Shown: piece after piece, positions 901 to 13,126 of the stretch | Layout: the number at the start of each line of letters is the position of its first letter | Numbering within the stretch: the stretch's first letter is position 1 | Virus record (IMG/VR): IMGVR_UViG_2718217868_000002 | Span: 1 to 13,126 of that record | Source of the DNA: a virus | Taxonomy: Duplodnaviria > Heunggongvirae > Uroviricota > Caudoviricetes | Strand: one strand, 5' to 3' | Length of the DNA: 13,126 nt | Made by a program: the position numbers and the translations under genes | Notes under the pieces: generated by a model | Database searches by the model: none | Told to the model about the DNA's origin: nothing | The model's input: the letters and a program-made list of their open reading frames with translations, nothing else

Positions 901-1305
901 GATCGTATGTGCCTTTATGATTGGTCTGTAGATAGTGTAGAGCAGAAAACAAAAGGTGGAGTCAGAACAGGATGAAAGTCGGAGGATAAAAAGTCAGTTC
1001 AAGTATGGAGGATTCAGTGGTTACCACCAGGAGCTTGCAATGGGGACAGCGAATACTAACGGCTGCCACCGATAAATTTCAAAAAAGAGCATATACCTAA
1101 TATTCAACTAAACAGTGGCATCTTCAATATAATATATTAAAGCCCCCATGGAGTTACCCTGAAGGGCCTCAATGTCCGTAATTCCTACTTATGTAGGAAA
1201 TGTTGTACAGAACATTTATTATAATCCTATTCAATTATAATAATCATGCCATTATTATATTTAAACACTAGAGAGTGTCGTTGGTATTTAATGGGGGAAG
1301 GTGAG

Positions 1306-1623
1306 ATGAAAAAGATAGCTGCTATATCATTAATTAGTATTTTTATTATGTCTGGTTGTGCTGTGCATAATGATGAGACAAGTATCGGTAAATTTGGTCT
1401 TGCATATAAAAGTAATATTCAGCGTAAACTCGATAACCAATACTACACCGAAGCCGAAGCTTCTTTAGCCAGGGGTAGAATATCTGGTGCAGAAAATATA
1501 GTAAAAAATGATGCAACTCATTTCTGTGTTACTCAGGGCAAAAAAATGCAAATAGTTGAGCTGAAGACAGAAGGTGTAGGATTACATGGTGTCGCTCGTC
1601 TGACATTCAAATGTGGAGAGTGA
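1306..1623 (+). CDS. yegR: Small putative lipoprotein YegR (105 aa)
   Basis: ATG at 1306 preceded by GGGGGAAGGTGAG (Shine-Dalgarno-like). N-terminus MKKIAAISLISIFIMSGC is a signal peptide with lipobox-like MSGC. The track ORF starts at 1246, but that extension lacks an RBS and precedes the signal peptide. AT-rich gene. Confidence 0.8.
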   Translation: MKKIAAISLISIFIMSGCAVHNDETSIGKFGLAYKSNIQRKLDNQYYTEAEASLARGRISGAENIVKNDATHFCVTQGKKMQIVELKTEGVGLHGVARLTFKCGE

Positions 1624-1685
1624 GAATATTTTTTGGTAAGCGTCAAATATGCGCGTTCTGGCTGTGCGTAGCCGGAACCTGTGGG

Positions 1686-1718
1686 AGCACGATGCCGATA
1701 AGTGAAAGGCATCGTGCT
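1686..1718. repeat. Perfect 11-bp inverted repeat (AGCACGATGCC / GGCATCGTGCT) with 11-nt loop; stable stem-loop in the host-side arm of attL
   Basis: Read directly: 1686-1696 is the exact reverse complement of 1708-1718. No T-tract follows on either strand, so it is not a canonical intrinsic terminator. Confidence 0.6.
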
Positions 1719-1782
1719 ATGAAGGAGGATTCTATCGATGTGGTCAATGGAAGACGGTTACCAGAGATAGGGCTTATGCATA

Positions 1783-1809
1783 AAAAAATAAGCCCGTGTA
1801 AGGGAGATT
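1783..1809. other. P2-type attachment core (attL junction) AAAAAATAAGCCCGTGTAAGGGAGATT
   Basis: 27-bp sequence matching my recollection of the phage P2 att core, lying about 80 bp downstream of the int stop codon, where P2 attP is expected. Flanked by a 7-bp inverted repeat GGCTTAT (1771-1777) / ATAAGCC (1788-1794). Confidence 0.6.
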
Positions 1810-1888
1810 TAGGGTGTCACCAGTAGGGGCTTTCAACGGTACAATGCGGGTTTGAGCGGCATAAATTACCACTGAAAGCCCTTAAACG

Positions 1889-2902
1889 TTACTCTACTGT
1901 GGACACTGTGTGGACACTCTCGGCCTCAGTACCACCTCTTAGCGGATTAAGAGAAATGGCGTCCTGAAGGTACTCTGGCGCAAAGTGAGCGTAAACCATA
2001 GTTTGCTCAATCCGCGTGTGACCTAGTATCCGTTGTAGCGTGATAATACTTCCTCCATTAATCATGAAATGAGTGGCAAAGCTGTGCCTTAGTGCATGTG
2101 TGGCTTGCCCCATTGGCAAATCCGGTTTTATTGCTTTCATTGTTCGTCTGAAGCGAGGGTAATCAGCATCAGGGAATAAAAAACCTCGTTTGTTATCCGC
2201 GATCATTTTGGCAACAGCCTCTGAGATCGGGACGGTGCGTGGTTTGTTTGTTTTCGTTTTAACAAACGTGACGCGGTTATGGATGATATTTTCTGCTTTC
2301 AAACGAGCTGCTTCTCCCCAACGTGCTCCAGTACTCAGGCAAAGAATCGCAATCTTTTTATTGTCGCCGTCAAGAGCAGCAAGCAGTAAGGCAATTTCTT
2401 CCTGCGTGAGATAGCCTGTGTCTGGTTTTTCCTCCTTAAGCCTTTTTGTCCCTCTGATAGGGTGCTCACCAAAGAATAACTCCGCTTCAATCAGGGCTGT
2501 AAACATGCCGCTAATACATGTTAAATCACGATTGATACTCGAAGGTTTAATACCCTGACTTCTTCGGGTGGCGCAGTACTGGCTGATAAGCGATTTCGTA
2601 ATTTGAAATGCGCATGGGTCATTCGTTATTTTTGTGAAGATTTCAATTTTTCCAAGATTAGATTTCCCATGCTCTTCGTGTTTACCCTTTAAATCCCACC
2701 AGATCTGTGTCAGCTCCGACAGACGTCGCTTGTCTGTTGGTTTTGATAGCCATTCTTTATTGTGGTGGTTGTACAACGTGTATTTCTCGAAAGCGACAGC
2801 TTCGCTTTTCTTATCAAACTTCCTACGGATGCGTTTTCCATTACGTCCAGTAGGGCGGATGTCCACTTCATATCGACCATCATCGAGTTTTTTGATTGCC
2901 AT
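1889..2902 (-). CDS. int: P2-type tyrosine integrase (337 aa)
   Basis: ATG at 2900-2902 (minus) with GGAGGG RBS upstream; TAA at 1889-1891. C-terminal catalytic region with HALRHSFAT...LGH...Y (R-H-R-Y tyrosine recombinase signature). Length and N-terminus MAIKKLDDGRYEVDIRP match phage P2 Int as I recall it. Confidence 0.95.
   Translation of the reverse strand: MAIKKLDDGRYEVDIRPTGRNGKRIRRKFDKKSEAVAFEKYTLYNHHNKEWLSKPTDKRRLSELTQIWWDLKGKHEEHGKSNLGKIEIFTKITNDPCAFQITKSLISQYCATRRSQGIKPSSINRDLTCISGMFTALIEAELFFGEHPIRGTKRLKEEKPDTGYLTQEEIALLLAALDGDNKKIAILCLSTGARWGEAARLKAENIIHNRVTFVKTKTNKPRTVPISEAVAKMIADNKRGFLFPDADYPRFRRTMKAIKPDLPMGQATHALRHSFATHFMINGGSIITLQRILGHTRIEQTMVYAHFAPEYLQDAISLNPLRGGTEAESVHTVSTVE
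1898..1918. repeat. Tandem direct repeat TGTGGACACT x2 (1898-1907 and 1909-1918); candidate arm-type Int binding sites (P' arm)
   Basis: Two 10-bp identical copies one helical turn apart, overlapping the 3' end of int. Assignment as Int arm sites is from recollection of P2 arm-site consensus (TGTGGACA-like), not verified. Confidence 0.4.
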
Positions 2903-3017
2903 CAGAAAACCCTCCGAGTGGTGTGTTTTTTGGCGACTACTAATCGCTTTTTTCGTGGTGGCTGAAATTTAGCCACCAATAGTAGGCACTTGTGATGAAT
3001 ATATTCACGATGAATTG

Positions 3018-3317
3018 TTAACCAGTCTTTTGACCGGAGTGGGGCGACGTTGTTTCGTTTTGCCCAAAGTGTGCGAGAGCGGGCGCAATTTGCCCGGACT
3101 CAGGAGCGATCTGATTGGTCATGAACCATAAAGTGTATTTGGTGAATTGTGGGGTCTGCAGGATGTTCATCATGACATCTGTTGGAGGTGTTGAACGACC
3201 ACTTTCATAGTAACTCAGCGTGCCATACGGAACCCCTGTTAAATCAGCAAGTTGTTGTCTGCTCAAATACTCTGATTTTCGCATTAAGACTATCTTCTCG
3301 CTTATCGTGTTTGACAT
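3018..3317 (-). CDS. C: Immunity repressor C (99 aa, P2 C-like, helix-turn-helix)
   Basis: 99-aa ORF divergent from cox; HTH-like segment LSRQQLADLTGVPYGTLSYYESG. Position (between int and cox) and size match P2 C. Confidence 0.9.
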   Translation of the reverse strand: MSNTISEKIVLMRKSEYLSRQQLADLTGVPYGTLSYYESGRSTPPTDVMMNILQTPQFTKYTLWFMTNQIAPESGQIAPALAHFGQNETTSPHSGQKTG

Positions 3318-3352
3318 GGTGTTTAGATCTCAATAGTATTTAGTTTAGATGT
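3311..3352 (+). promoter_or_regulatory. Early promoter Pe with C-operator direct repeats
   Basis: -35 TTGACA (3311-3316), 17-bp spacer, -10 TAGTAT (3334-3339). Two 10-bp direct repeats GTTTAGATCT (3321-3330) and GTTTAGATGT (3343-3352), 22 bp centre to centre, flank the -10. This is the P2-type arrangement of C operator half-sites, from memory of P2 biology. Confidence 0.55.
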
Positions 3353-3380
3353 AGATTGTTTAGTGCTTGGATGTGGGCAC

Positions 3381-3408
3381 TAAAAGGCATTATAAGGCAT
3401 TAAACGCA
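3381..3408. promoter_or_regulatory. Three phased cox-box-like repeats (TAAAAGGCA, TATAAGGCA, TTAAACGCA) overlapping a candidate Pc -10 (TATAAT on minus strand, 3389-3394)
   Basis: Tandem 9-bp repeats with about 10-bp periodicity upstream of cox; resemble the Cox recognition consensus TTAAA(G/C)NCA as I recall it. The Pc -35 is not convincingly identified. Confidence 0.45.
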
Positions 3409-3431
3409 ATTCATGAGGGCTGGAGGACGAC

Positions 3432-3707
3432 ATGAGCAAGCAAGTAACACTCATGACTGATGCGATTCCTTATCAGGAGTTCGCAAAACTAATAGGAAAA
3501 TCGACAGGAGCGGTTCGTCGGATGATCGATAAAGGAAAGCTGCCTGTAATTGATATGACCGATCCACAATCAGCTTCAGGTCGTGCAGGTGAATATTGGG
3601 TATACCTTCCGGCATGGAATAACGGACTAAAACTGGCTTATGAAAGCCGCCCTAAAGAGATTCGTGACGGCTGGTTGATGTGGTTAGGTCTCGGTGAACC
3701 ACGTTAA
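3432..3707 (+). CDS. cox: Cox (excisionase / Pc repressor, 91 aa)
   Basis: ATG at 3432 preceded by GGAGGA (3422-3427). 91 aa, first gene of the rightward early operon, as in P2. Confidence 0.9.
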   Translation: MSKQVTLMTDAIPYQEFAKLIGKSTGAVRRMIDKGKLPVIDMTDPQSASGRAGEYWVYLPAWNNGLKLAYESRPKEIRDGWLMWLGLGEPR

Positions 3708-3717
3708 GGAGAACCGT

Positions 3718-3888
3718 ATGAATGAGCCTCGTTGTATTGCTCAGTTACTGCGTAACGAAAGCCCCAGGGCGATTGACTTCAACATCACCCACGGTAAGGG
3801 GCGTAAGGGAATCATTATCCGCACCAAAAAACAGAGTCCGTTAAAAAAGGCTCTGACCTTTCTGAAAAGCCGGAGGGTATGGAAATGA
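3718..3888 (+). CDS. Small early protein, P2 orf78-like (56 aa)
   Basis: ATG at 3718 with AAGGAG RBS (3706-3711). Basic small protein. The track ORF start at 3694 overlaps the cox 3' end and lacks an RBS. Stop overlaps the B start (ATGA). Confidence 0.6.
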   Translation: MNEPRCIAQLLRNESPRAIDFNITHGKGRKGIIIRTKKQSPLKKALTFLKSRRVWK

Positions 3889-4385
3889 CAGTGATGACGC
3901 TCAATCTCGTTGAAAAACAGCCAGCAACTATGCGCCGGATAATTGGTAAGCATCTGGCCGTCCCTCGCTGGCAGGAGACATGCGATTATTATAATCAGAT
4001 GATGGAACGTGAACGGCTAACGGTTTGCTTCCATGCGCAGTTAAAACAGCGTCACGCAACGATGCGTTTTGAAGAAATGAACGACGTCGAACGTGAACGA
4101 CTGGTATGTGCAATTGATGAATTGCGTGGGGCATTCTCAAAACGCCGTCAGGTTGGCGCAAGTGAGTATGCATATATTAGTTTTTTAACAGTCAGTCAGC
4201 GTCGCACTTTATTTATGCACGCACGACTGACAGAAAAAGAATTTAACCAGCCATACTGGCGAATTAATGAAGAATCATGTTACTGGCGTGATGCTTTATT
4301 CCGTGCATTACGTGAATTATTCAGTCTGTTTGAGTATGCACCGACAATTCTGACGTCGGTAAAACCAGAGCAATATCTGCATTAA
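3885..4385 (+). CDS. B: Replication protein B (166 aa; P2 B-like, helicase-loader function)
   Basis: ATG at 3885 (7 nt after GGAGGG). Size and position match P2 gene B. Confidence 0.85.
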   Translation: MTVMTLNLVEKQPATMRRIIGKHLAVPRWQETCDYYNQMMERERLTVCFHAQLKQRHATMRFEEMNDVERERLVCAIDELRGAFSKRRQVGASEYAYISFLTVSQRRTLFMHARLTEKEFNQPYWRINEESCYWRDALFRALRELFSLFEYAPTILTSVKPEQYLH

Positions 4386-4448
4386 GTAATTAACCAGAGT
4401 TTTTAACGCACTTAATTGTGCGGGGCTTCTTTTTGCCTGGAGAAAGTC

Positions 4449-4673
4449 ATGCATACAGTTTCTGAAAATCAGTGCGGTATATACGCATTACTGCTGCAAC
4501 AGGCCAGAACCGAAGCACAGGCCGACGCTGCGACGCGCTTTTCTTCTCATCTTGACGCCATGATTCGCCACATCACAAAGGCGGAGTTATCCCGCGTGGA
4601 GATAGTCGAGCTGCTCAGTCAGGAGTCGGAAAAATTTCACAATATCGGATTGTCTCGTGGGGAGGTGCTTTGA
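4449..4673 (+). CDS. Hypothetical early protein (P2 orf80-like)
   Basis: ATG at 4449 after GGAGAAAG; stop TGA at 4671-4673 overlaps the next start. Start choice uncertain (track ORF begins at 4416). Confidence 0.5.
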
Positions 4674-4975
4674 TGTCCTGTTCTCATTCAGTTGTATTAC
4701 TGAATAACGCCTTAAAAATCGCCGTTATGGAAAATGGCGATTTGTCTCTTATTCAACTTGGTCTTGATAAAGAAAAGCGCGACATAACTGAATCTGTTAT
4801 CGCGATTTATCAGAGCGAATTAAACCTCCTGTCTGATGTGATCAATTTACTTGTGAAACGCGCTGTATTTCACAAGCAAATTTCCTCAGTGGATGAACTG
4901 ACAAAATTAACGACAGAACTCGCCAGCTATTGCGCTGATGAATTTAAGAAACTGAACGACAAAAGGAACTGGTAA
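4673..4975 (+). CDS. Hypothetical early protein (P2 orf81-like)
   Basis: ATG at 4673 (TGATG overlap with upstream stop), GGAGG RBS at 4661-4665; 100 aa. Confidence 0.6.
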   Translation: MSCSHSVVLLNNALKIAVMENGDLSLIQLGLDKEKRDITESVIAIYQSELNLLSDVINLLVKRAVFHKQISSVDELTKLTTELASYCADEFKKLNDKRNW

Positions 4976-5199
4976 TGCCGGACAACGTAGATTTCATTCA
5001 GGAACAACAGGCTGAATTACTGGAGCGCCAGATTAACGCGGCAAGGGTAAAACATTGCGGTGCTTCTGCGCTGGTTTGCGAAGAGTGTGACGCGCCAATA
5101 CCTGCTGCCCGTCGTGCGGCTTATCCGTCAGCCACGCGTTGTGTTTCCTGTCAGTCAGTCTTTGAAGCAAAAAACAAACATTACCGGAGAACGGCATGA
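4975..5199 (+). CDS. TraR/DksA-family C4 zinc-finger protein (P2 orf82-like, 74 aa)
   Basis: CEEC-x17-CVSC (Cys35/38 and Cys56/59) is the CxxC-x17-CxxC spacing of zf-DksA/TraR proteins. ATG at 4975 with TAATG overlap. Confidence 0.7.
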   Translation: MPDNVDFIQEQQAELLERQINAARVKHCGASALVCEECDAPIPAARRAAYPSATRCVSCQSVFEAKNKHYRRTA

Positions 5200-5471
5200 G
5201 TATTCGTATTGAAATTGGCGAACGTTATGTCGTTACCAGTGACAGCTTCCAGTTTATTCTCCACGAGAAAAAGAGAGCGGAAAGCGGTAAAAACGCCGGT
5301 CAGGAATGGCTGGCGGTGGTTGGTTATTACCCGAAATTAAGCCAGCTCGTTTCCGGCCTGATGCATCACGATATTCTGACCGGAAGCGCAAAGTCTTTTG
5401 CTGATTTAAACGCGCAGGTTGAGCAACTCAGCAAGCGTTGTTCAGAGGCTTTTGGCTCATATGGCCGTTAA
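5196..5471 (+). CDS. Hypothetical early protein (P2 orf83-like, 91 aa)
   Basis: ATG at 5196 (ATGA overlap with upstream gene), GGAGA RBS. Confidence 0.6.
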   Translation: MSIRIEIGERYVVTSDSFQFILHEKKRAESGKNAGQEWLAVVGYYPKLSQLVSGLMHHDILTGSAKSFADLNAQVEQLSKRCSEAFGSYGR

Positions 5472-7773
5472 AGCCTCCGGGCGTTTTGTCCCTCCGTCAG
5501 CATTTGCCGCAGGCACCGGTAAGACGTTTACCGGTGCTTATGCATGGAACGCGCCACGCGAGGCCGTCGGGCGCGAAAGACCCCTTACACGTGACGAGAT
5601 GCGTCAGGTGCAAGGTGTTTTATCCACGATTAACCGCCTGCCTTACTTTTTGCGTTCGCTGTTTACTTCACGCTATGACTACATCCGGCGCAATAAAAGC
5701 CCGGTGCACGGGTTTTATTTCCTCACATCCACTTTTCAGCGTCGTTTATGGCCGCGCATTGAGCGCGTGAATCAGCGCCATGAAATGAACACCGACGCGT
5801 CGTTACTGTTTCTGGCAGAGCGTGACCACTATGCGCGCCTGCCGGGAATGAATGACAAGGAGCTGAAAAAATTTGCCGCCCGTATCTCATCGCAGCTTTT
5901 CATGATGTATGAGGAACTCTGCGATGCCTGGGTGGATGCCCATGGCGAAAAAGAATCGCTGTTTACGGATGAGGCGCAGGCTCACCTGTATGGTCATGTT
6001 GCTGGCGCTGCACGTGCTTTCAATATTTCCCCGCTCTACTGGAAAAAATACCGTAAAGGACAGATGACCACGAGGCAGGCATATTCTGCCATTGCCCGCC
6101 TGTTTAACGATGAGTGGTGGACTCATCAGCTTAAAGGCCAGCGTATGCGCTGGCATGAGGCGTTACTGATTGCTGTCGGGGAGGTCAATAAAGACCGTTC
6201 TCCTTATGCCAGTAAACATGCCATTCGTGATGTGCGTGCACGCCGCCAGGCAAATCTGGAATTTCTTAAATCGTGTGACCTTGAAAACAGGGAAACCGGC
6301 GAGCGCATCGACCTTATCAGTAAGGTGATGGGCAGTATTTCTAATCCTGAAATTCGCCGGATGGAGCTGATGAACACCATTGCCGGTATTGAGCGTTACG
6401 CCGCAGCAGAGGGTGATGTGGGGATGTTTATCACGCTGACCGCGCCGTCAAAGTATCACCCGACACGTCAGGTCGGAAAAGGCGAAAGTAAAACCGTCCA
6501 GCTAAATCACGGCTGGAACGATGAGGCATTTAATCCAAAGGATGCGCAGCGTTATCTCTGCCATATCTGGAGCCTGATGCGCACGGCATTCAAGGATAAT
6601 GATTTACAGGTCTACGGTTTGCGTGTCGTCGAGCCACACCACGACGGAACGCCGCACTGGCATATGATGCTTTTTTGTAATCCACGCCAGCGTAACCAGA
6701 TTATTGAAATCATGCGTCGCTATGCGCTCAAAGAGGATGGCGACGAAAGAGGAGCCGCGCGAAACCGTTTTCAGGCAAAACACCTTAACCGGGGCGGTGC
6801 TGCGGGATATATCGCGAAATACATCTCAAAAAACATCGACGGCTATGCACTGGATGGTCAGCTCGATAATGATACCGGTAGGCCGCTGAAAGACACAGCT
6901 GCGGCTGTTACCGCATGGGCGTCAACGTGGCGCATTCCGCAATTTAAAACGGTTGGTCTGCCGACAATGGGGGCTTACCGTGAACTACGCAAATTGCCTC
7001 GCGGCGTCAGCATTGCTGATGAGTTTGACGAGCGCGTCGAGGCTGCACGCGCCGCCGCAGACAGTGGTGATTTTGCGTTGTATATCAGCGCGCAGGGTGG
7101 GGCAAATGTCCCGCGCGATTGTCAGACTGTCAGGGTCGCCCGTAGCCCGTCGGATGACGTTAACGAGTATGAGGAAGAAGTCGAGAGAGTGGTCGGCATT
7201 TACGCGCCGCATCTCGGCGCGCGTCATATTCATATCACCAGAACGACGGACTGGCGCATTGTTCCGAAAGTGCCGGTCTTTGAGCCTTTGACTTTAAAAA
7301 GCGGCATCGCCGCGCCTCGGAGTCCTGTCAATAACTGTGGAAAGCCTGCCAGCAGTGATACTTCGTTACCGGCTCCCACACCTTCTGAACATGCCGCAGC
7401 AGTGCTTAATCTGGTAGATGACGGTGTTATCGAATGGAGTGACCCGGAGGTTGTGAGGGCGCTCAGGGATGCATTAAAACACGGCCTGAAAACACCAAAT
7501 CGTCAGCAAAGAAACGGAAGCCCGTTAAAACTACATGAAATAGCACCGTCGGCCAGACTGACCAGGTCGGAACGAATGCAAATCACCCGTATCCGCGTTG
7601 ACCTTGTTCAGAATGGTATCAGGCCTCAGCGATGGGAGCTTGAGGCGTTGGTTCGAGGAGCGAGAGTAAATTATGGTGATATGTCATTCAAATTTCCAAT
7701 TGATGATCGATTTTATGATGATGTTAACTCTTTGAATTTATGGAGTATTGAGTCTCGTGTGAACTTCACATAA
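5461..7773 (+). CDS. A: Replication initiation protein A (rolling-circle initiator, P2 A-like)
   Basis: About 770 aa from ATG 5461 (MAVKASGRFVPP...); the track ORF begins at a TTG at 5419. Large GC-rich gene in the position of P2 A. The last ~35 codons (about 7665-7773) switch abruptly to AT-rich composition. Confidence 0.85.
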   Translation: MAVKASGRFVPPSAFAAGTGKTFTGAYAWNAPREAVGRERPLTRDEMRQVQGVLSTINRLPYFLRSLFTSRYDYIRRNKSPVHGFYFLTSTFQRRLWPRIERVNQRHEMNTDASLLFLAERDHYARLPGMNDKELKKFAARISSQLFMMYEELCDAWVDAHGEKESLFTDEAQAHLYGHVAGAARAFNISPLYWKKYRKGQMTTRQAYSAIARLFNDEWWTHQLKGQRMRWHEALLIAVGEVNKDRSPYASKHAIRDVRARRQANLEFLKSCDLENRETGERIDLISKVMGSISNPEIRRMELMNTIAGIERYAAAEGDVGMFITLTAPSKYHPTRQVGKGESKTVQLNHGWNDEAFNPKDAQRYLCHIWSLMRTAFKDNDLQVYGLRVVEPHHDGTPHWHMMLFCNPRQRNQIIEIMRRYALKEDGDERGAARNRFQAKHLNRGGAAGYIAKYISKNIDGYALDGQLDNDTGRPLKDTAAAVTAWASTWRIPQFKTVGLPTMGAYRELRKLPRGVSIADEFDERVEAARAAADSGDFALYISAQGGANVPRDCQTVRVARSPSDDVNEYEEEVERVVGIYAPHLGARHIHITRTTDWRIVPKVPVFEPLTLKSGIAAPRSPVNNCGKPASSDTSLPAPTPSEHAAAVLNLVDDGVIEWSDPEVVRALRDALKHGLKTPNRQQRNGSPLKLHEIAPSARLTRSERMQITRIRVDLVQNGIRPQRWELEALVRGARVNYGDMSFKFPIDDRFYDDVNSLNLWSIESRVNFT

Positions 7774-7776
7774 TAT
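7748..7776 (+). promoter_or_regulatory. Candidate sigma70 promoter for the cargo operon
   Basis: -35-like TTGAGT (7748-7753), 17-bp spacer, -10-like TAATAT (7771-7776), about 50 nt upstream of the SIR2 start. Weak matches; by-eye only. Confidence 0.3.
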
Positions 7777-7827
7777 GGGGCCGTTGTAGGTGTTTGAATA
7801 ATCAGACTTCAATTCAAAGGGATAATT

Positions 7828-9075
7828 ATGGTTATTTATCAAGGTGGTAAGATAATATCTGAAGATGATTTTTATTCTCATCTTTATTCGTTATGTCAGT
7901 TGGATAATGTAGGGGTTCTTTTAGGCGCGGGAGCATCGGTCGGATGTGGCGGCCAAACTATGAAGCAGGTATGGCAGTTTTTTAAATATGAACATCCTGA
8001 TCTATTGAATTTGTTACTAGAAAAATACTTATTGGTTGACAAAACTGAATCTGAACAAGATATAGTTAATGTTGAGCTTCTAATTGATGAAGTAACTAAA
8101 TTCTTGTCTGTGGCCAAAACAAGACGTAATGAAGACGAACAAAAAGAAATTAGTTTAATATTAAGTGCTTTGTATAAACAAGTAACAAAGGCTGCATTGT
8201 TAACTGGAGAAGAGTTTGGTTGTAAAAATCAAGGGAAGAAAAAACAGTTTAAGTCTCATAAAGAATTAATTTCAAAGTTGATTTCAAATAGGCAGCCGGG
8301 ACAATCGGCTCCGGCACTTTTTACTACCAACTATGATTTGGCATTAGAGTGGGCAGCTGAAGATTTAGGAATTCAGCTATTTAATGGTTTTTCAGGATTG
8401 CATACAAGACAATTTTATCCTCAAAATTTTGATTTGGCATTTAGAAATGTCAATGCAAAAGGGGAGGCTAGATTTGGTCATTATCACGCTTATCTATATA
8501 AATTGCATGGCTCTCTTACATGGTATCAGGATGATTTTTTAATAGTTAATGAGATAAGTGCATCTCAGGCATATGATAATTACATTAAAAATATTATTAA
8601 TGGTGACGGTTTTTACTATGGTCAACATTTAATTTATCCGGGGGCTAATAAATATAGCCATACAATTGGTTTTGTTTACGGTGAAATGTTTAGACGTTTT
8701 GGCGAGTTTTTGTCAAAACCTCAAACCGCTTTGTTTATTAATGGGTTTGGGTTTGGTGATTATCATATAAACAGAATTGTTTTTGGTGCTTTGTTAAATC
8801 CGTCATTTCATGTTGTTATTTATTACCCTGATCTGGAGAATGCTTTAGATAAAGTTAGTAGAGGCGTTGCTTCTGAAGGTGAAAAGGCAATTGATGCTTT
8901 AAAAAATATGCAATTCAATCAAGTGACTATCGTGGGTGGGGGGGCAGATGCTTACTTTGATAGTTTTGTGAAACATCTTCCTTATCCGGTGTTGTTCCCA
9001 AGAGAAAATACTGTTGATGACTTGGTTGAAGCTATTTCTAAATTGTCTAAAGGGGAAGGGAATGTCGCATTTTAA
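7828..9075 (+). CDS. SIR2-family (sirtuin-like / DHS-like NAD-binding) protein, predicted NAD+ hydrolase effector (415 aa)
   Basis: ATG at 7828 with AAGGGA RBS. Glycine-rich loop GAGASVGCGG (aa 33-42, nt 7924-7953). TTNYD motif (aa 166-170, nt 8323-8337). HG(S) motif in KLHGSL (His227, nt 8506-8508). Order and spacing match defence-associated SIR2 domains (ThsA/SIR2_2-like). Gene is about one-third GC against ~55-60% in flanking phage genes (hand count on sample 60-mers). Confidence 0.8.
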   Translation: MVIYQGGKIISEDDFYSHLYSLCQLDNVGVLLGAGASVGCGGQTMKQVWQFFKYEHPDLLNLLLEKYLLVDKTESEQDIVNVELLIDEVTKFLSVAKTRRNEDEQKEISLILSALYKQVTKAALLTGEEFGCKNQGKKKQFKSHKELISKLISNRQPGQSAPALFTTNYDLALEWAAEDLGIQLFNGFSGLHTRQFYPQNFDLAFRNVNAKGEARFGHYHAYLYKLHGSLTWYQDDFLIVNEISASQAYDNYIKNIINGDGFYYGQHLIYPGANKYSHTIGFVYGEMFRRFGEFLSKPQTALFINGFGFGDYHINRIVFGALLNPSFHVVIYYPDLENALDKVSRGVASEGEKAIDALKNMQFNQVTIVGGGADAYFDSFVKHLPYPVLFPRENTVDDLVEAISKLSKGEGNVAF

Positions 9076-10882
9076 ACTATCTGAATTATCTGCTATTGGG
9101 TATGTCGTTGGTCTGGAGGGCGAAAAAATAAGGATAAATCTTCATGAAGGATTGCAAGGTAGGCTCGCCTCTCATAGGGATGGTGTTAGTTCTGTTACTC
9201 AGCCTGGAGATTTGATCGGTTTTGATGCCGGAAATATTCTGGTTGTGGCTCGAGTTACAGATATGGCATTTGTCGAGGCTGATAAAGCACATAAGGCAAA
9301 AATAGGTACATCAGATATAGCAGATATGCCGTTAAGGCAAATAATAGCCTATGCAATAGGTTTTATTAGACGAGATATAGATGGATGTGTGTTTGTTTCG
9401 GAAGACTGGAGGTTACCTGCTCTGGGAGCATCCGCTGTCCCGTTAACATCTGATTTTTTAAATATCGTATATAGTATTGATAAAAATGATCTGGATAAAG
9501 CAATTGAGTTAGAAATAGATTCGAGGACTAAATCAGTTAAAATTTTAGCTAGCATTGATAAATTACTAACCAGGCATATGGCTGTTTTGGGCAGTACTGG
9601 ATATGGTAAATCTAATTTTAATGCTTTACTTACACGCCGCATTTCAGAACAGTACCCTAATGCAAGAATAGTAATTTTTGATATTAATGGCGAGTATTCT
9701 CAGGCTTTTGAAGGTGTTGCTAATGTTAAACATACTATTTTAGGTGAGTTACCAAAAGGAGAGTTTCCAAAACCACCTCTACAGAAAGGAGATATATTTT
9801 CTGAGAATGAACATTACTACTATAGAAAAATACCTTATCAAGCATTGGGATTTGCTGGGTTGATAAAATTACTACGCCCTAGTGATAAGACACAATTACC
9901 TGCATTAAGAAATGCGCTTAATGCTATAAATAGTGTTCATTTTTCCGATGATTCATTCTTTCTTAAGGATGAAGTAGGGGGCGTATTTAATATTTTTGAT
10001 GATTGTAGAGATGAAGGGCAAGAGCTTTTATCTGCGTGGTTGAGTTTCTTAAGAAGAGGGATGCTGTGTAAGGCAAATAAATGGCCGCCGTTTAAAAGTA
10101 TTGCTAACTTGGTTGCGGAGTTTGGTTGCGTGGCGGCGGATTCGCGAAAAGCTGGATCTAGTAAACGAGATGCTTTTAGCTATGGTAATGTTCTGCCATT
10201 GATTAAGATAATTCAACAGTTATCAGAGGATTCTAGATTCAAGTATGTTGTTGATTTAAATGGAGGTGGTGAATTATTAAGTGATGGCAAACATTGGGAA
10301 TTAGCTATGAGACAGGAAGTTGATTATTTCTTTGGTAAAGAAAAGGGAGAGGAGAATGACTGGAATATTCATATTGTTAATTTTAAGCATCTTTCACAAG
10401 ATCATGCTCCAATGCTGTTAAGTGCATTATTAGAAATGTTTGCTGAAGTTCTCTTTCTTAGGGGGCAAAACAAAGCTTTTCCAACCGTGTTACTTCTTGA
10501 AGAGGCGCACCACTATTTAAGAGATCCTTATTCTGAAGTTGATGCACAAATTAAAGCTTATGAAAGACTTGCTAAAGAAGGGCGTAAATTTAAATGTTCA
10601 CTTATTGTGAGCACACAACGACCATCAGAGCTTTCATCAACAGTATTAGCAATGTGTGCAAATTGGTTTTCGTTGCGCCTGACAAATGAGCGTGATTTGC
10701 AGACTTTACGGTATGCGATGGAAAGTGGAAATGAGTTAATGATTCGGCAGATTTCTGGGCTTCCAAGAGGAGATGCAATAGCGTTTGGTGCTGCTTTTAA
10801 TATACCCGTAAGAATTTCAATTCACCCTGCTGTACCCGGTCCGAGATCGTCTGACGCAAGTTATTCTCAAGAATGGCGATAA
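9062..10882 (+). CDS. HerA-like (FtsK/HerA superfamily) P-loop ATPase, 606 aa
   Basis: ATG at 9062 preceded by AGGGGAAGGGA; start lies 14 nt inside the upstream gene (translational coupling). Walker A GSTGYGKS (aa 177-184, nt 9590-9613). Walker B-like VLLLEEAHH (aa 476-484, nt 10487-10513). TQRP motif (aa 518-521, nt 10613-10624), characteristic of HerA/VirB4-type ATPases. N-terminal ~170 aa is consistent with a HAS-barrel. AT-rich like its partner. Confidence 0.8.
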   Translation: MSHFKLSELSAIGYVVGLEGEKIRINLHEGLQGRLASHRDGVSSVTQPGDLIGFDAGNILVVARVTDMAFVEADKAHKAKIGTSDIADMPLRQIIAYAIGFIRRDIDGCVFVSEDWRLPALGASAVPLTSDFLNIVYSIDKNDLDKAIELEIDSRTKSVKILASIDKLLTRHMAVLGSTGYGKSNFNALLTRRISEQYPNARIVIFDINGEYSQAFEGVANVKHTILGELPKGEFPKPPLQKGDIFSENEHYYYRKIPYQALGFAGLIKLLRPSDKTQLPALRNALNAINSVHFSDDSFFLKDEVGGVFNIFDDCRDEGQELLSAWLSFLRRGMLCKANKWPPFKSIANLVAEFGCVAADSRKAGSSKRDAFSYGNVLPLIKIIQQLSEDSRFKYVVDLNGGGELLSDGKHWELAMRQEVDYFFGKEKGEENDWNIHIVNFKHLSQDHAPMLLSALLEMFAEVLFLRGQNKAFPTVLLLEEAHHYLRDPYSEVDAQIKAYERLAKEGRKFKCSLIVSTQRPSELSSTVLAMCANWFSLRLTNERDLQTLRYAMESGNELMIRQISGLPRGDAIAFGAAFNIPVRISIHPAVPGPRSSDASYSQEWR

Positions 10883-11036
10883 TCTTGTGGGAGAATGTAA
10901 TAGGATAACGATAAGTGCATCTATCTGCATTAATTCGAATAAGGTTGAGAGGAGTTCAAAAACAAATTTAGACCGGCATTAGAGTGATTTAGATAGACAT
11001 ATGCAACTGCATTAAAACCGCCCCATGAAGCGGGCG

Positions 11037-11055
11037 GGCGAGGCGGGGAAAGCAC
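11037..11055. other. cos site: 19-nt P2-type cohesive-end sequence GGCGAGGCGGGGAAAGCAC
   Basis: Exact 19-mer matching my recollection of the P2 cohesive end, in the expected prophage position between the right-end accessory genes and Q. Preceded by a GC hairpin, CCGCCC (11018-11023) / GGGCGG (11032-11037). Confidence 0.55.
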
Positions 11056-11196
11056 TGCGCGCTGGCGGTGGTGCTGATTTTATTTTTTCAGCGTCTGAGC
11101 GCGTCGTGATGGCGTTTAGATTGTTAGCCGGGGCGTTGGTGTGTCTGCGGGCTGTTTTGTGCGGTGGTGAGCGTGTGAGGGCGTGATGGCGGGGTG

Positions 11197-11220
11197 TAAA
11201 AAAGCCGCCCGCAGGCGGCG
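11197..11220 (-). terminator. Rho-independent terminator downstream of Q
   Basis: GCCGCC (11204-11209) / GGCGGC (11214-11219) stem with CGCA loop, immediately followed on the minus strand by a T-run (plus-strand A-run 11198-11203), 4 nt after the Q stop codon. Confidence 0.65.
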
Positions 11221-11224
11221 ATGT

Positions 11225-12259
11225 TCAGCCGTTGTCAGTGTCCAGTGAGTAGTTTTTAAAGCGGATGACCTCCTGACCGAGCCAGCCGTTTATCTCGCGG
11301 ATCCTGTCCTGTAACGGGATAAGCTCATTGCGGACAAAGACCTTTGCCACTTTCTCAATATCACCCAGCGACCCGACGTTCTCCGGCTTGCCGCCCATCA
11401 ACTGAAAGGGGATGCGGTGCGCGTCCAGCAGGTCAGCGGCGCTGGCTTTTTTGATATTAAAAAAATCGTCCTTCGTTGCCACTTCACTGAGCGGGATAAT
11501 TTTAATGCCGTCAGCTTTCCCCTGCGGGGCATAGAGAAACAGGTTTTTAAAGTTGTTGCGGCCTTTCGACTTCACCATGTTTTCGCGAAGCATTTCGATA
11601 TCGTTGCGATCCTGCACGGCATCGGTAACGTACATGATGTATCCGGCATGAGCGCCGTTTTCGTAATACTTGCGGCGGAACAGCGTGGCTGACTCATTCA
11701 GCCAGGCAGAGTTAAGGGCGCTGAGATATTCCGGCAGGCCGTACAGCTCCTGATTAATATCCGGCTCCAGCAGATGAAACACGGAGCCAGGTGCGAAGGC
11801 TGTCGGCTCGTTGAAGGAAGGCACCCACCAGTAAACATCCTCCTCCACGCCACGGCGGGTATATTTTGCCGGTGAGGTTTCCAGTCTGATGACCTTGCCG
11901 GTGGTGCTGTAACGCTTTTCCAGAAACGCATTGCCGAACACCAGAAAATCCAGCACAAAGCGGCTGAAATCCTGCTGGGAAAGCCACGGATGCGGGATAA
12001 ATGTCGAGGCCAGAATATTGCGTTTGACGTAAATCGGGGAGCTGTGATGCACGGCAGCACGCAGGCTTTTTGCCAGACCGGTAAAGCTGATTGGTGGCTC
12101 ATACCATCTGCCGTTACTGATGCATTCGACGTAATCCAGAATGTCACGGCGGTCGAGTACCGGCACCGGCTCACCAAAGGTGAATGCCTCCATTTTCGGG
12201 GCGCTGGCGGTCATTTTTTTTGCCGCAGGTTGCGGTGTTTTCCCTTTTTTCTTGCTCAT
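11225..12259 (-). CDS. Q: Portal protein Q (344 aa, P2 Q-like)
   Basis: ATG at 12257-12259 (minus), TGA at 11225-11227. Size and sequence recognised as the P2 capsid portal protein; leftward-transcribed gene adjacent to cos, as in P2. Confidence 0.9.
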   Translation of the reverse strand: MSKKKGKTPQPAAKKMTASAPKMEAFTFGEPVPVLDRRDILDYVECISNGRWYEPPISFTGLAKSLRAAVHHSSPIYVKRNILASTFIPHPWLSQQDFSRFVLDFLVFGNAFLEKRYSTTGKVIRLETSPAKYTRRGVEEDVYWWVPSFNEPTAFAPGSVFHLLEPDINQELYGLPEYLSALNSAWLNESATLFRRKYYENGAHAGYIMYVTDAVQDRNDIEMLRENMVKSKGRNNFKNLFLYAPQGKADGIKIIPLSEVATKDDFFNIKKASAADLLDAHRIPFQLMGGKPENVGSLGDIEKVAKVFVRNELIPLQDRIREINGWLGQEVIRFKNYSLDTDNG

Positions 12260-12528
12260 CAGTAAAACTCCAGAATGGTGGATGTCAGCGGGGTGCTGAT
12301 ACCGGCGGTGAGTGGCTCATTTAACAGGGCGTGCATGGTCGCCCAGGCGAGGTCGGCGTGGCTGGCTTCCTCGCTGCGGCTGGCCTCATAGGTGGCGCTG
12401 CGCCCGCTGCTGGTCATGGTCTTGCGGATAGCCATAAACGAGCTGGTGATGTCGGTGGCGCTGACGTCGTATTCCAGACAGCCACGGCGGATAACGTCTT
12501 TTGCCTTGAGCACCATTGCGGTTTTCAT
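12259..12528 (-). pseudogene. P: Truncated terminase large subunit P (C-terminal ~90 codons only)
   Basis: Minus-strand frame that ends with a TGATG stop/start overlap onto Q, the P-Q operon arrangement. The frame is closed by a stop about 45 codons further upstream and the sequence beyond ~12540 instead reads as coding on the plus strand. An intact P would be about 590 aa. Upstream boundary approximate. Confidence 0.5.
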
Positions 12529-12540
12529 TTCCGGTGTGTG

Positions 12541-12624
12541 CCTCCTCTTGAAAACCTGACCCTGCGCCAGCGTATTACCGATAAATACCTGGCAAATCTG
12601 GTCACCTCGGTTAACAGCAATTAA
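12541..12624 (+). pseudogene. FI: 3' remnant of tail sheath gene FI (last ~28 codons)
   Basis: Plus-strand frame with host-typical codons (CTG, CGC, CAG, ACC) ending at TAA 12622-12624, directly upstream of the FII RBS AAGGAG (12624-12629). Assignment is by position relative to FII. Left boundary uncertain. Confidence 0.35.
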
Positions 12625-12636
12625 GGAGCCTGACCG

Positions 12637-12852
12637 ATGGCAATGCCGCGCAAACTCAAGTTAATGAACGTCTTTCTGAACGGCTACAGCTATCAGGGCG
12701 TTGCAAAGTCCGTCACGCTGCCAAAACTGACCCGTAAGCTCGAAAACTATCGCGGTGCGGGGATGAACGGCAGCGCACCGGTAGACCTCGGCCTTGATGA
12801 CGATGCTCTGTCAATGGAGTGGTCGCTCGGTGGATTCCCGGATTCGGTTATA
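12637..12852 (+). pseudogene. FII: Truncated tail tube gene FII (N-terminal 72 codons)
   Basis: ATG at 12637 after AAGGAG. N-terminus MAMPRKLKLMNVFLNGYSYQGVAKSVTLPKL... recognised as P2 FII. The reading frame breaks after ...GGFPDSVI (about 12852) and then runs to an early stop at 12898-12900. Confidence 0.6.
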
Positions 12853-12853
12853 T

Positions 12854-13126
12854 GCCACGAAAGCACAGGCCATGCGCGCCGCTCAGGCGAAGTGGGATAA
12901 ACTGCAACGGGGCGTTGCGGAGTTCTCCATCAGCCTGGCTACTGGTCGGGCAGATATTTACACGGAAACACCGGTCAAAGTGTCTGGCTTTAAGCGCGTC
13001 ATAGACGAGCAGGACTGGACAATCACTAAGGTGACACACTTTCTGAATAATAGTGGCTTCACGACGTCCTTAGAACTTGAGGTAAGGCTTTCTGATGTGG
13101 AGTACGAAACAGAAGATGATGAGTGA
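12854..13126 (+). pseudogene. D: C-terminal fragment of tail protein D (~90 codons), fused out of frame to FII'
   Basis: Second frame reads ...ATKAQAMRAAQAKWDKLQRGVAEFSISLATGRADIYTETPVKV...SDVEYETEDDE with stop at 13124-13126. Recognised as the C-terminus of P2 gpD (the K-12 yegZ-like remnant). The N-terminal part of the track ORF (12794..) is an out-of-frame read of FII. Confidence 0.55.

Follow-up and report, generated by a model that had tools for sequence, protein, structure and literature searches.

The 13,126-nt stretch of DNA analysed here (the window; record IMGVR_UViG_2718217868_000002) contains, at positions 1771–1923, what is almost certainly the attL (B-O-P′) of a P2-type prophage at E. 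coli locI, the 3′ end of the small RNA (sRNA) gene cyaR. The window is identical in sequence to positions 1939991–1953116 of the chromosome of E. coli strain H6 (NZ_CP010170.1). An earlier reading of these letters alone (the sequence-only reading) had proposed an attL of this type at the yegR site, and the homology breakpoints, a four-way comparison of attachment sites and a second copy of the core all agree with that proposal. The attL at locI/cyaR is a textbook case for P2: it has been characterised before, and the P2 record annotates its parts.

The 27-bp core is the overlap of host and phage DNA

The 27-mer that the sequence-only reading had taken for the P2 att core aligned 27/27 with the feature 'attP' of the P2 record (AF063097 24356–24382), and the same 27-base string is quoted as the core common to P2 attP and locI (PMC3931495). 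Its right edge lies 79 bp from the int stop codon, in line with the approximate 80 bp given earlier, and yegR and yegS both lie to its left, which places the site next to yegR as had been claimed. The statement that E. coli K-12 carries a cryptic P2 remnant at this locus was also sound: K-12 derivatives carry a D′-ogrK remnant here, and a P2 remnant at locI of K-12 has been reported (PMC3931495).

Megablast against phage records showed that homology to P2 (AF063097) begins exactly at window position 1783, and megablast against 5,426 complete E. coli genomes showed that prophage-free genomes match up to exactly position 1809; the overlap of host and phage homology is exactly the 27-bp core. Attachment sites attL, attR, attB and attP were then compared over 100-nt arms anchored at the core. 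attL consisted of the left arm of the empty site (B, 100/100), the core and the P2 right arm (P′, 100/100), and attR consisted of the P2 left arm (P, 93/100), the core and the right arm of the empty site (B′, 100/100), with all cross-comparisons at 18–23/100. The matching core that had been anticipated at attR was found as a second exact copy at 13528–13554 of the extended H6 locus (L004), on the same strand and hence in direct orientation, 402 bp past the end of the window and 11,745 bp downstream of the first copy. On its left are ogrK and a P2-type P arm, and on its right host DNA continues toward yegQ. Measured against P2 attP and the empty locus, the junctions are therefore reciprocal, the P2 core does not differ from the 27-mer, and the other end of the prophage does carry a second core.

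Two phage entries, ON470606 (vB_EcoM-720R8) and AY639599 ('Phage TP'), were considered as true attP variants with a host B arm and rejected. Both contain yegS/yegR or yegQ host flank, and they are therefore mis-delimited prophage or host records.

Table 1. Features of the window and of the loci compared with it. Positions are those of the window unless L003 (empty E. coli site) or L004 (extended H6 locus) is given.
Feature	Position	Strand	Remarks
yegS	1–900	minus	Host gene, left of core
Decayed core and start of P′ (putative fossil attL)	986–1042	plus	40/58 against P2 core and first 30 nt of P′
yegR	1306–1623	plus	Host-annotated small protein gene, between putative fossil attL and relic P arm
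Relic P arm, probable (B arm segment)	1736–1771	plus	29/36 identity to P2 24293–24327
8-bp inverted repeat GGGCTTAT / ATAAGCCC	1770–1777 / 1788–1795		10-nt spacer; straddles left edge of core
27-bp att core (O), AAAAAATAAGCCCGTGTAAGGGAGATT	1783–1809		Exact match to P2 attP core
Int core footprint	1783–1810		P2 record; core plus 1 nt
Cox binding region, predicted	1826–1899		P2 protein_bind 'Cox' 24399–24472, identical sequence
int stop codon	1889–1891	minus	P2 feature transfer
int, tyrosine integrase, 337 aa	1889–2902	minus	Pfam Int_N and Phage_integrase domains
Int P′ arm, predicted arm-type site	1897–1923	plus	P2 protein_bind 'Int, P′ arm' 24470–24496, identical
Direct repeats TGTGGACACT	1898–1907, 1909–1918		Period 11, inside P′ arm site
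C	3018–3317	minus	P2-type
cox, excision directionality factor (excisionase/RDF)	3432–3707	plus	Annotated as cox family protein
P2 early operon, up to A	Right of cox in window		
Two-gene insert in prophage	7828–10882		
cos, Q, fragments of P, FII and D	Right part of window		
cyaR at empty E. coli site	L003 2387–2472	minus	RF00112, overlaps core
cyaR at attR of H6	L004 13531–13616	minus	RF00112, overlaps core
P2 24356–30248	L004 1783–7675		attP core, int, C, cox, B, orf80–83, most of A
P2 cosR 33546–33593, then 1–1501	L004 11008–12539		cos, Q, part of P
P2 18756–19072	L004 12538–12854		End of FI, part of FII
P2 23677–24382	L004 12849–13554		D′, ogr, P arm, core

The target is the terminator of the sRNA gene cyaR

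In minus-strand orientation the core reads AAUCUCCCUUACACGGGCUUAUUUUUU and corresponds to the final 27 nt of cyaR, namely the end of the 5′ stem half of the terminator, its loop, all of the 3′ stem half and the U tract. Rfam returned a full-length match of 100.7 bits to CyaR/RyeE (RF00112; gathering score 47) at two sites, the empty E. coli site and the attR of H6. No CyaR match was obtained in window positions 1600–2000 even at E ≤ 10, nor across the whole window: attL holds only the 27-nt 3′ fragment, orphaned from the gene body, which lies beyond attR and outside the window. An 11-bp terminator was called at attR. An intact sRNA or terminator at attL was considered and rejected, the Rfam matches in 1600–2000 being at chance level (E 3.6–7) and no terminator being called there.

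attP contains its own copy of the cyaR terminator half, and integration therefore reconstitutes a complete cyaR at attR. Like tRNA-targeting phages, P2 inserts into the terminator of the gene and makes good the loss from its own DNA; judged by its sequence, attL keeps the displaced original 3′ end of cyaR as a presumably non-terminating orphan copy. The use of cyaR by P2 has been published: 'cyaR RNA' is entered in Table 2 of PMC3032704 as the site occupied by Wphi2 (P2) in E. coli W, by ogr-D′ in K-12 and by P2*B in E. coli B.

Scanning one genome of each species turned up the exact core in several Kluyvera, Enterobacter hormaechei, E. ruysiae, Shigella and an Escherichia sp. To the right of the core, all core-bearing loci except the E. 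ruysiae attL (L020) have the same conserved sequence, which is cyaR by Rfam; the left flanks are diverse.

The host arm probably retains relics of an older P2-like element

When attL, attP and attB were aligned, a likeness to the P2 P arm became visible in the host arm to the left of the core. The similar segment, the relic P arm of Table 1, includes TCGATGTGGTCAATG exactly and keeps the first arm repeat, TGTGGTCA, intact at 1739–1746, the second repeat being decayed. It scored 38, against a null of 14.6 ± 2.2, a value that 0/2000 dinucleotide shuffles reached, and the other combinations of host and P2 arms gave scores at null level. In Escherichia sp. MOD1-EC7003 (L027) the P-arm relic is longer and continues through the P2 IHF-site region (score 44, 0/2000 shuffles).

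Further left, a second segment resembles a decayed core with the start of P′. The similarity is weak when taken alone, as 56/3000 and 59/2000 shuffles reach its score; the ortholog in MOD1-EC7003 is 44/57 identical to P2 and scored 45 against 17.1 ± 2.2, with 0/2000 shuffles reaching that value. In a multiple alignment, this segment begins exactly at the boundary between the yegS-proximal flank and the intact core of E. ruysiae. E. ruysiae (L020) has its yegS flank immediately against the core, with no yegR in between, and in Kluyvera (L011, L015, L016) yegS lies only 40–75 nt from the core, also without yegR. The two relics have the order and orientation expected of attL ... attR and bracket about 0.8 kb.

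We consider it likely that locI is the attR of an older P2-like element rather than a naive attB, with the present prophage in tandem with a fossil of its own kind. In the simplest reading, the yegS–cyaR spacer of roughly 0.8 kb, including yegR, is what remains of that element; the fossil attR core would have survived because it is part of cyaR, and the fossil attL decayed. No recognisable phage-derived interior was found in the yegR spacer by blastn against P2, and sensitive blastn of 900–1782 returned only the P-arm relic at E < 0.01 as P2 homology. YegR had no Pfam match. When a phage origin of yegR was sought by tblastn against phages and in PHROGs and Pfam, the matches were confined to PHROG 21109 and to records that contain host flank.

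The resemblance between the arms could also have arisen with no fossil prophage at all, if a P2 ancestor took up locI-adjacent host DNA by imprecise excision or if gene conversion ran from phage to host. The direction of transfer is unreadable from two sequences, and the first arm repeat is the only well-preserved one, both of which suit such an origin. We nevertheless judge it unlikely, because capture by a phage would not yield a decayed copy of core and P′ 0.8 kb away in the host. It also leaves unaccounted for two separate relics standing in attL ... attR order, the start of the left one at the point where the E. ruysiae flank meets its core, the lack of anything between yegS and the core in Kluyvera spp., and the lesser decay of both relics in MOD1-EC7003. 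An older P2-like element thus remains the preferred explanation, and its attL and attR relics around yegR are possibly undescribed so far. Much less likely is that the surviving B-side arm-type octamer TGTGGTCA adds to the preference for locI over secondary sites.

An inverted repeat at the left edge of the core is a host feature

The sequence-only reading had described a 7-bp inverted repeat bracketing the left edge of the core. The repeat is present and does bracket that edge, but its length is 8 bp, not 7. An inverted repeat touching the core arose in 34/3000 shuffles (about 1%), which makes this one, chosen after looking, only modestly unusual. It could be imagined to function in the att site, either as a B-side core-type Int site or as a terminator hairpin: it is perfect, overlaps the core, is rare among shuffles, is predicted to form a hairpin on either strand and is kept in E. 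coli and Shigella B arms. Such a role is nonetheless very improbable, as the repeat is absent from P2 attP, where Int must recognise the same core, and from MOD1-EC7003, E. ruysiae and Kluyvera, all of which share the core; moreover, a T run is lacking after it and terminator prediction called nothing here. Because the Int core footprint of the P2 record, the core plus 1 nt only, lies within 1783–1810, leaving all but the right arm of the repeat outside, the repeat is not among the mapped Int sites. We regard it as a host B-arm feature, unchanged in the empty attB.

The phage half of attL is identical to P2

Window positions 1783–1930 are identical to P2 at 148/148 nt, and the sites mapped in P2 therefore transfer directly; the protein_bind features of AF063097 were moved to the window with an offset of 22,573 (Table 1). 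The proteins are conserved likewise. The int product is identical to P2 Int at 336/337 residues, with the single substitution E161D, and Cox is identical to P2 Cox at 91/91. Given the 100% identity to the P2 protein_bind sites, Int and Cox would be expected to bind attL at these positions, and the cox product to act on 1826–1899. We found nothing that contradicts the B-O-P′ reading, in which the predicted protein binding is carried over from P2 by identity and by the annotation of its record.

Two exact 10-bp repeats one helical turn apart had been noted at the 3′ end of int, overlapping its C-terminal codons and proposed to be arm-type Int sites. Both copies are where they had been placed, and they cover the codons for ...SVHTVSTVE*. 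As for their function, they fall within the P2-annotated 'Int, P′ arm', and the TGTGGACA repeats at 1898 and 1909 match tgTGGaCa, an arm consensus drawn from P2-type phages (PMC3448106). Neither strand of the whole 13-kb window has a further exact copy of the TGTGGACA octamer. The P arm at attR has a matching repeat pair, TGTGGTCA and TGTGGACG, likewise 11 bp apart and non-coding. The TGTGGACACT repeats do sit within the int reading frame, but that they merely encode the C-terminus of Int (VHTVSTV) or were duplicated by chance, and bind no protein, is scarcely credible, given the label that the P2 record puts on the identical sequence, the recurrence of the octamer family with the same number and spacing of repeats in a non-coding arm, the breadth of the consensus and the lack of further exact octamers in 13 kb.

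In the predicted Cox region, a box scan identified cox-box-like nonamers facing both ways, for example TGAAAGCCC at 1873–1881 (plus) and 1827–1835 (minus). For cox boxes a consensus of TTAAA(G/C)NC(A/C) has been published, and attP has six of them 'facing two different ways' (PMC3936717); the boxes in both orientations found here agree with that account. Because the boxes are inverted, the region also contains an 18-nt imperfect inverted repeat (1824–1841 / 1867–1884) and the 3′ UTR of int a predicted 15-bp hairpin. Cox filaments have been proposed to shape the excisome at attL (PMC3936717). A further direct repeat, D1 (1758–1776 / 1866–1884, 74%), and several short inverted repeats were rejected as chance or by-products of the cox boxes.

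These features suggest how the site may work. The 27-bp core is the stretch of identity in which P2 Int exchanged strands between attP and attB. During excision, by analogy with P2 and lambda biology, Int's N-terminal domains would bind the P′ repeats, and its core-binding and catalytic domains the imperfect dyad in the core (AAATAAGCCC / GGGAGATTT). Cox would polymerise on its region and bend the arm, and IHF and the P-arm sites would act at attR. Recombination of attL with attR would release a circle of 11,745 bp and restore attB; no phage particles would follow, because the prophage is a deletion remnant.

The prophage is a defective remnant

From core to core the prophage measures 11,745 bp and is a defective deletion remnant rather than a full P2. 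The map of its P2 segments (Table 1) shows that most late genes are deleted. Both deletion junctions occur together in strains H6 and H5 only, and the FII′-D′ junction is common to E. coli B strains. Among the 5,426 complete E. coli genomes, 815 have an attL-type junction at the locus and at most 4,206 an attB-type junction, the latter an upper bound in which joined pieces are counted.

Comparison with known attachment sites

The closest counterpart is P2 itself, known from the att studies by Haggard-Ljungquist and co-workers to which PMC3931495, PMC3448106 and PMC3936717 refer. P2 attP, or attL at locI, has the same core, Cox region, P′ repeats, int 3′ end, host locus and B-O-P′ layout. The att site does not differ at all; the H6 prophage differs from P2 in being cut to 11.7 kb and in carrying SIR2-HerA instead of tin/old. 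The ogrK-D′ remnant of K-12 and P2*B of E. coli B, likewise decayed P2 prophages, are found at this attachment site too (PMC3032704 Table 2). In K-12, attL is lost and the remnant begins within the core, at a point that corresponds to window position 1800, whereas attL, int, C, cox, B, A, cos and Q are all intact in H6.

With lambda attL and other sites of heterobivalent tyrosine integrases, the site shares dual recognition of core-type and arm-type sequences, and lambda attL resembles it in having direct-repeat arm sites beside int and excisionase sites on the int-proximal arm. Core identity extends over 27 bp in P2 and over 15 bp in lambda. Unlike lambda, P2 has a single annotated IHF site, on the P arm, and an arm site that overlaps the coding end of int; Cox also differs from its lambda counterpart in being a filament-forming winged-helix protein that is a transcriptional repressor as well (PMC3936717).

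Integration at the 3′ ends of RNA genes is known from phage 186 (tRNA-Ile), Fels-2/SopE-phi (ssrA) and elements at sdsR (PMC3448106, PMC3333887). In elements that target tRNA, tmRNA or sRNA genes, attP likewise carries a copy of the RNA 3′ end, so that the gene is rebuilt on one side and an orphan is left on the other. Unlike tRNA-like targets, the target of P2 is the terminator hairpin of the gene for an Hfq-binding sRNA.

As a discovery, the attL matters little; its use lies in annotation. The limits of the prophage in strain H6 are now exact (1783 to 13554), and cyaR can be annotated as intact despite the prophage. The putative fossil around yegR is of modest evolutionary interest. It suggests that one sRNA-gene terminator has seen repeated use and decay, and a fossil attR at locI would explain why locI, unlike secondary sites, matches attP perfectly.

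A deletion remnant carrying a defence pair

The strain H6 prophage is a deletion remnant about one third the length of P2 that lacks P2 1502–18755 and 19073–23676 and retains both att sites, int, C, cox, B, A, cos, Q and ogr. Strains H6 and H5 are the only ones with both deletion junctions; E. coli B strains share the FII′–D′ junction. Between A and cos, where P2 has orf91, tin and old, the H6 prophage instead carries an anti-phage defence pair comprising SIR2 (415 aa, PADLOC score 623.9 bits) and HerA (606 aa, 897 bits). The K-12 D′–ogrK remnant (2452–2520 of L148, a K-12 derivative) has its left end inside the att core, at the equivalent of window position 1800; K-12 has therefore lost attL along with the rightmost 9 nt of this copy of the core. 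The K-12 deletion is independent of that in the H6 prophage.

Features of the H6 prophage and its left host flank
Feature	Position	Strand	Note
Decayed core and P′	window 986-1042		
Inverted repeat 3′ of yegR	window 1686-1718		11 bp, perfect; loop 11 nt
Relic P arm	window 1736-1771		
Predicted hairpin, int 3′ untranslated region	window 1824-1884	minus	15 bp
Prophage deletion remnant	window 1783-13126 and 13127-13554 of the H6 locus (L004)		11,745 bp
ori nick within A	window 7319		
SIR2 and HerA	window 7828-10882		basis PADLOC
cos	window about 11037-11055		

Relics and hairpins around the left junction

Because a decayed core with P′ and a relic P arm flank the yegR spacer, we suggest that locI, the prophage insertion site, represents the attR of a more ancient P2-like element. 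Counterparts of both relics are less decayed in Escherichia sp. MOD1-EC7003 (L027, about 215–272 and 600–660). The inverted repeat downstream of yegR (AGCACGATGCC and GGCATCGTGCT) lies a short way to the left of the relic P arm, the place held in P2 by the ogr terminator; no T run follows this repeat and no terminator was called there. On the int side of the junction, the inverted cox boxes give rise to a predicted hairpin in the 3′ untranslated region of int, and the whole 131-nt piece that contains it folds at −35.7 kcal/mol (z = −2.87). This hairpin could also influence the stability of the int mRNA 3′ end.

Host flank in phage records and the cyaR terminator

YegR is matched strongly by PHROG 21109 (237.5 bits), probably owing to E. 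coli host flank inside records filed as phage. Two such records, ON470606.1 and AY639599.1, contain this flank, with gatR, yegS and yegR in one and yegR, a D′–ogr remnant and yegQ in the other, which makes it a trap when inferring prophage origin. The exact core, which is the 3′ end of the sRNA gene cyaR, is kept together with cyaR in Kluyvera spp. and Enterobacter hormaechei (loci L007, L009–L011, L014–L019, L021 and L025). To its left, these loci carry several unrelated kinds of DNA, with a distance of 40 to about 1900 bp between yegS and the core. It therefore appears that the cyaR terminator serves as a hotspot of insertion for other elements besides those of the P2 type.
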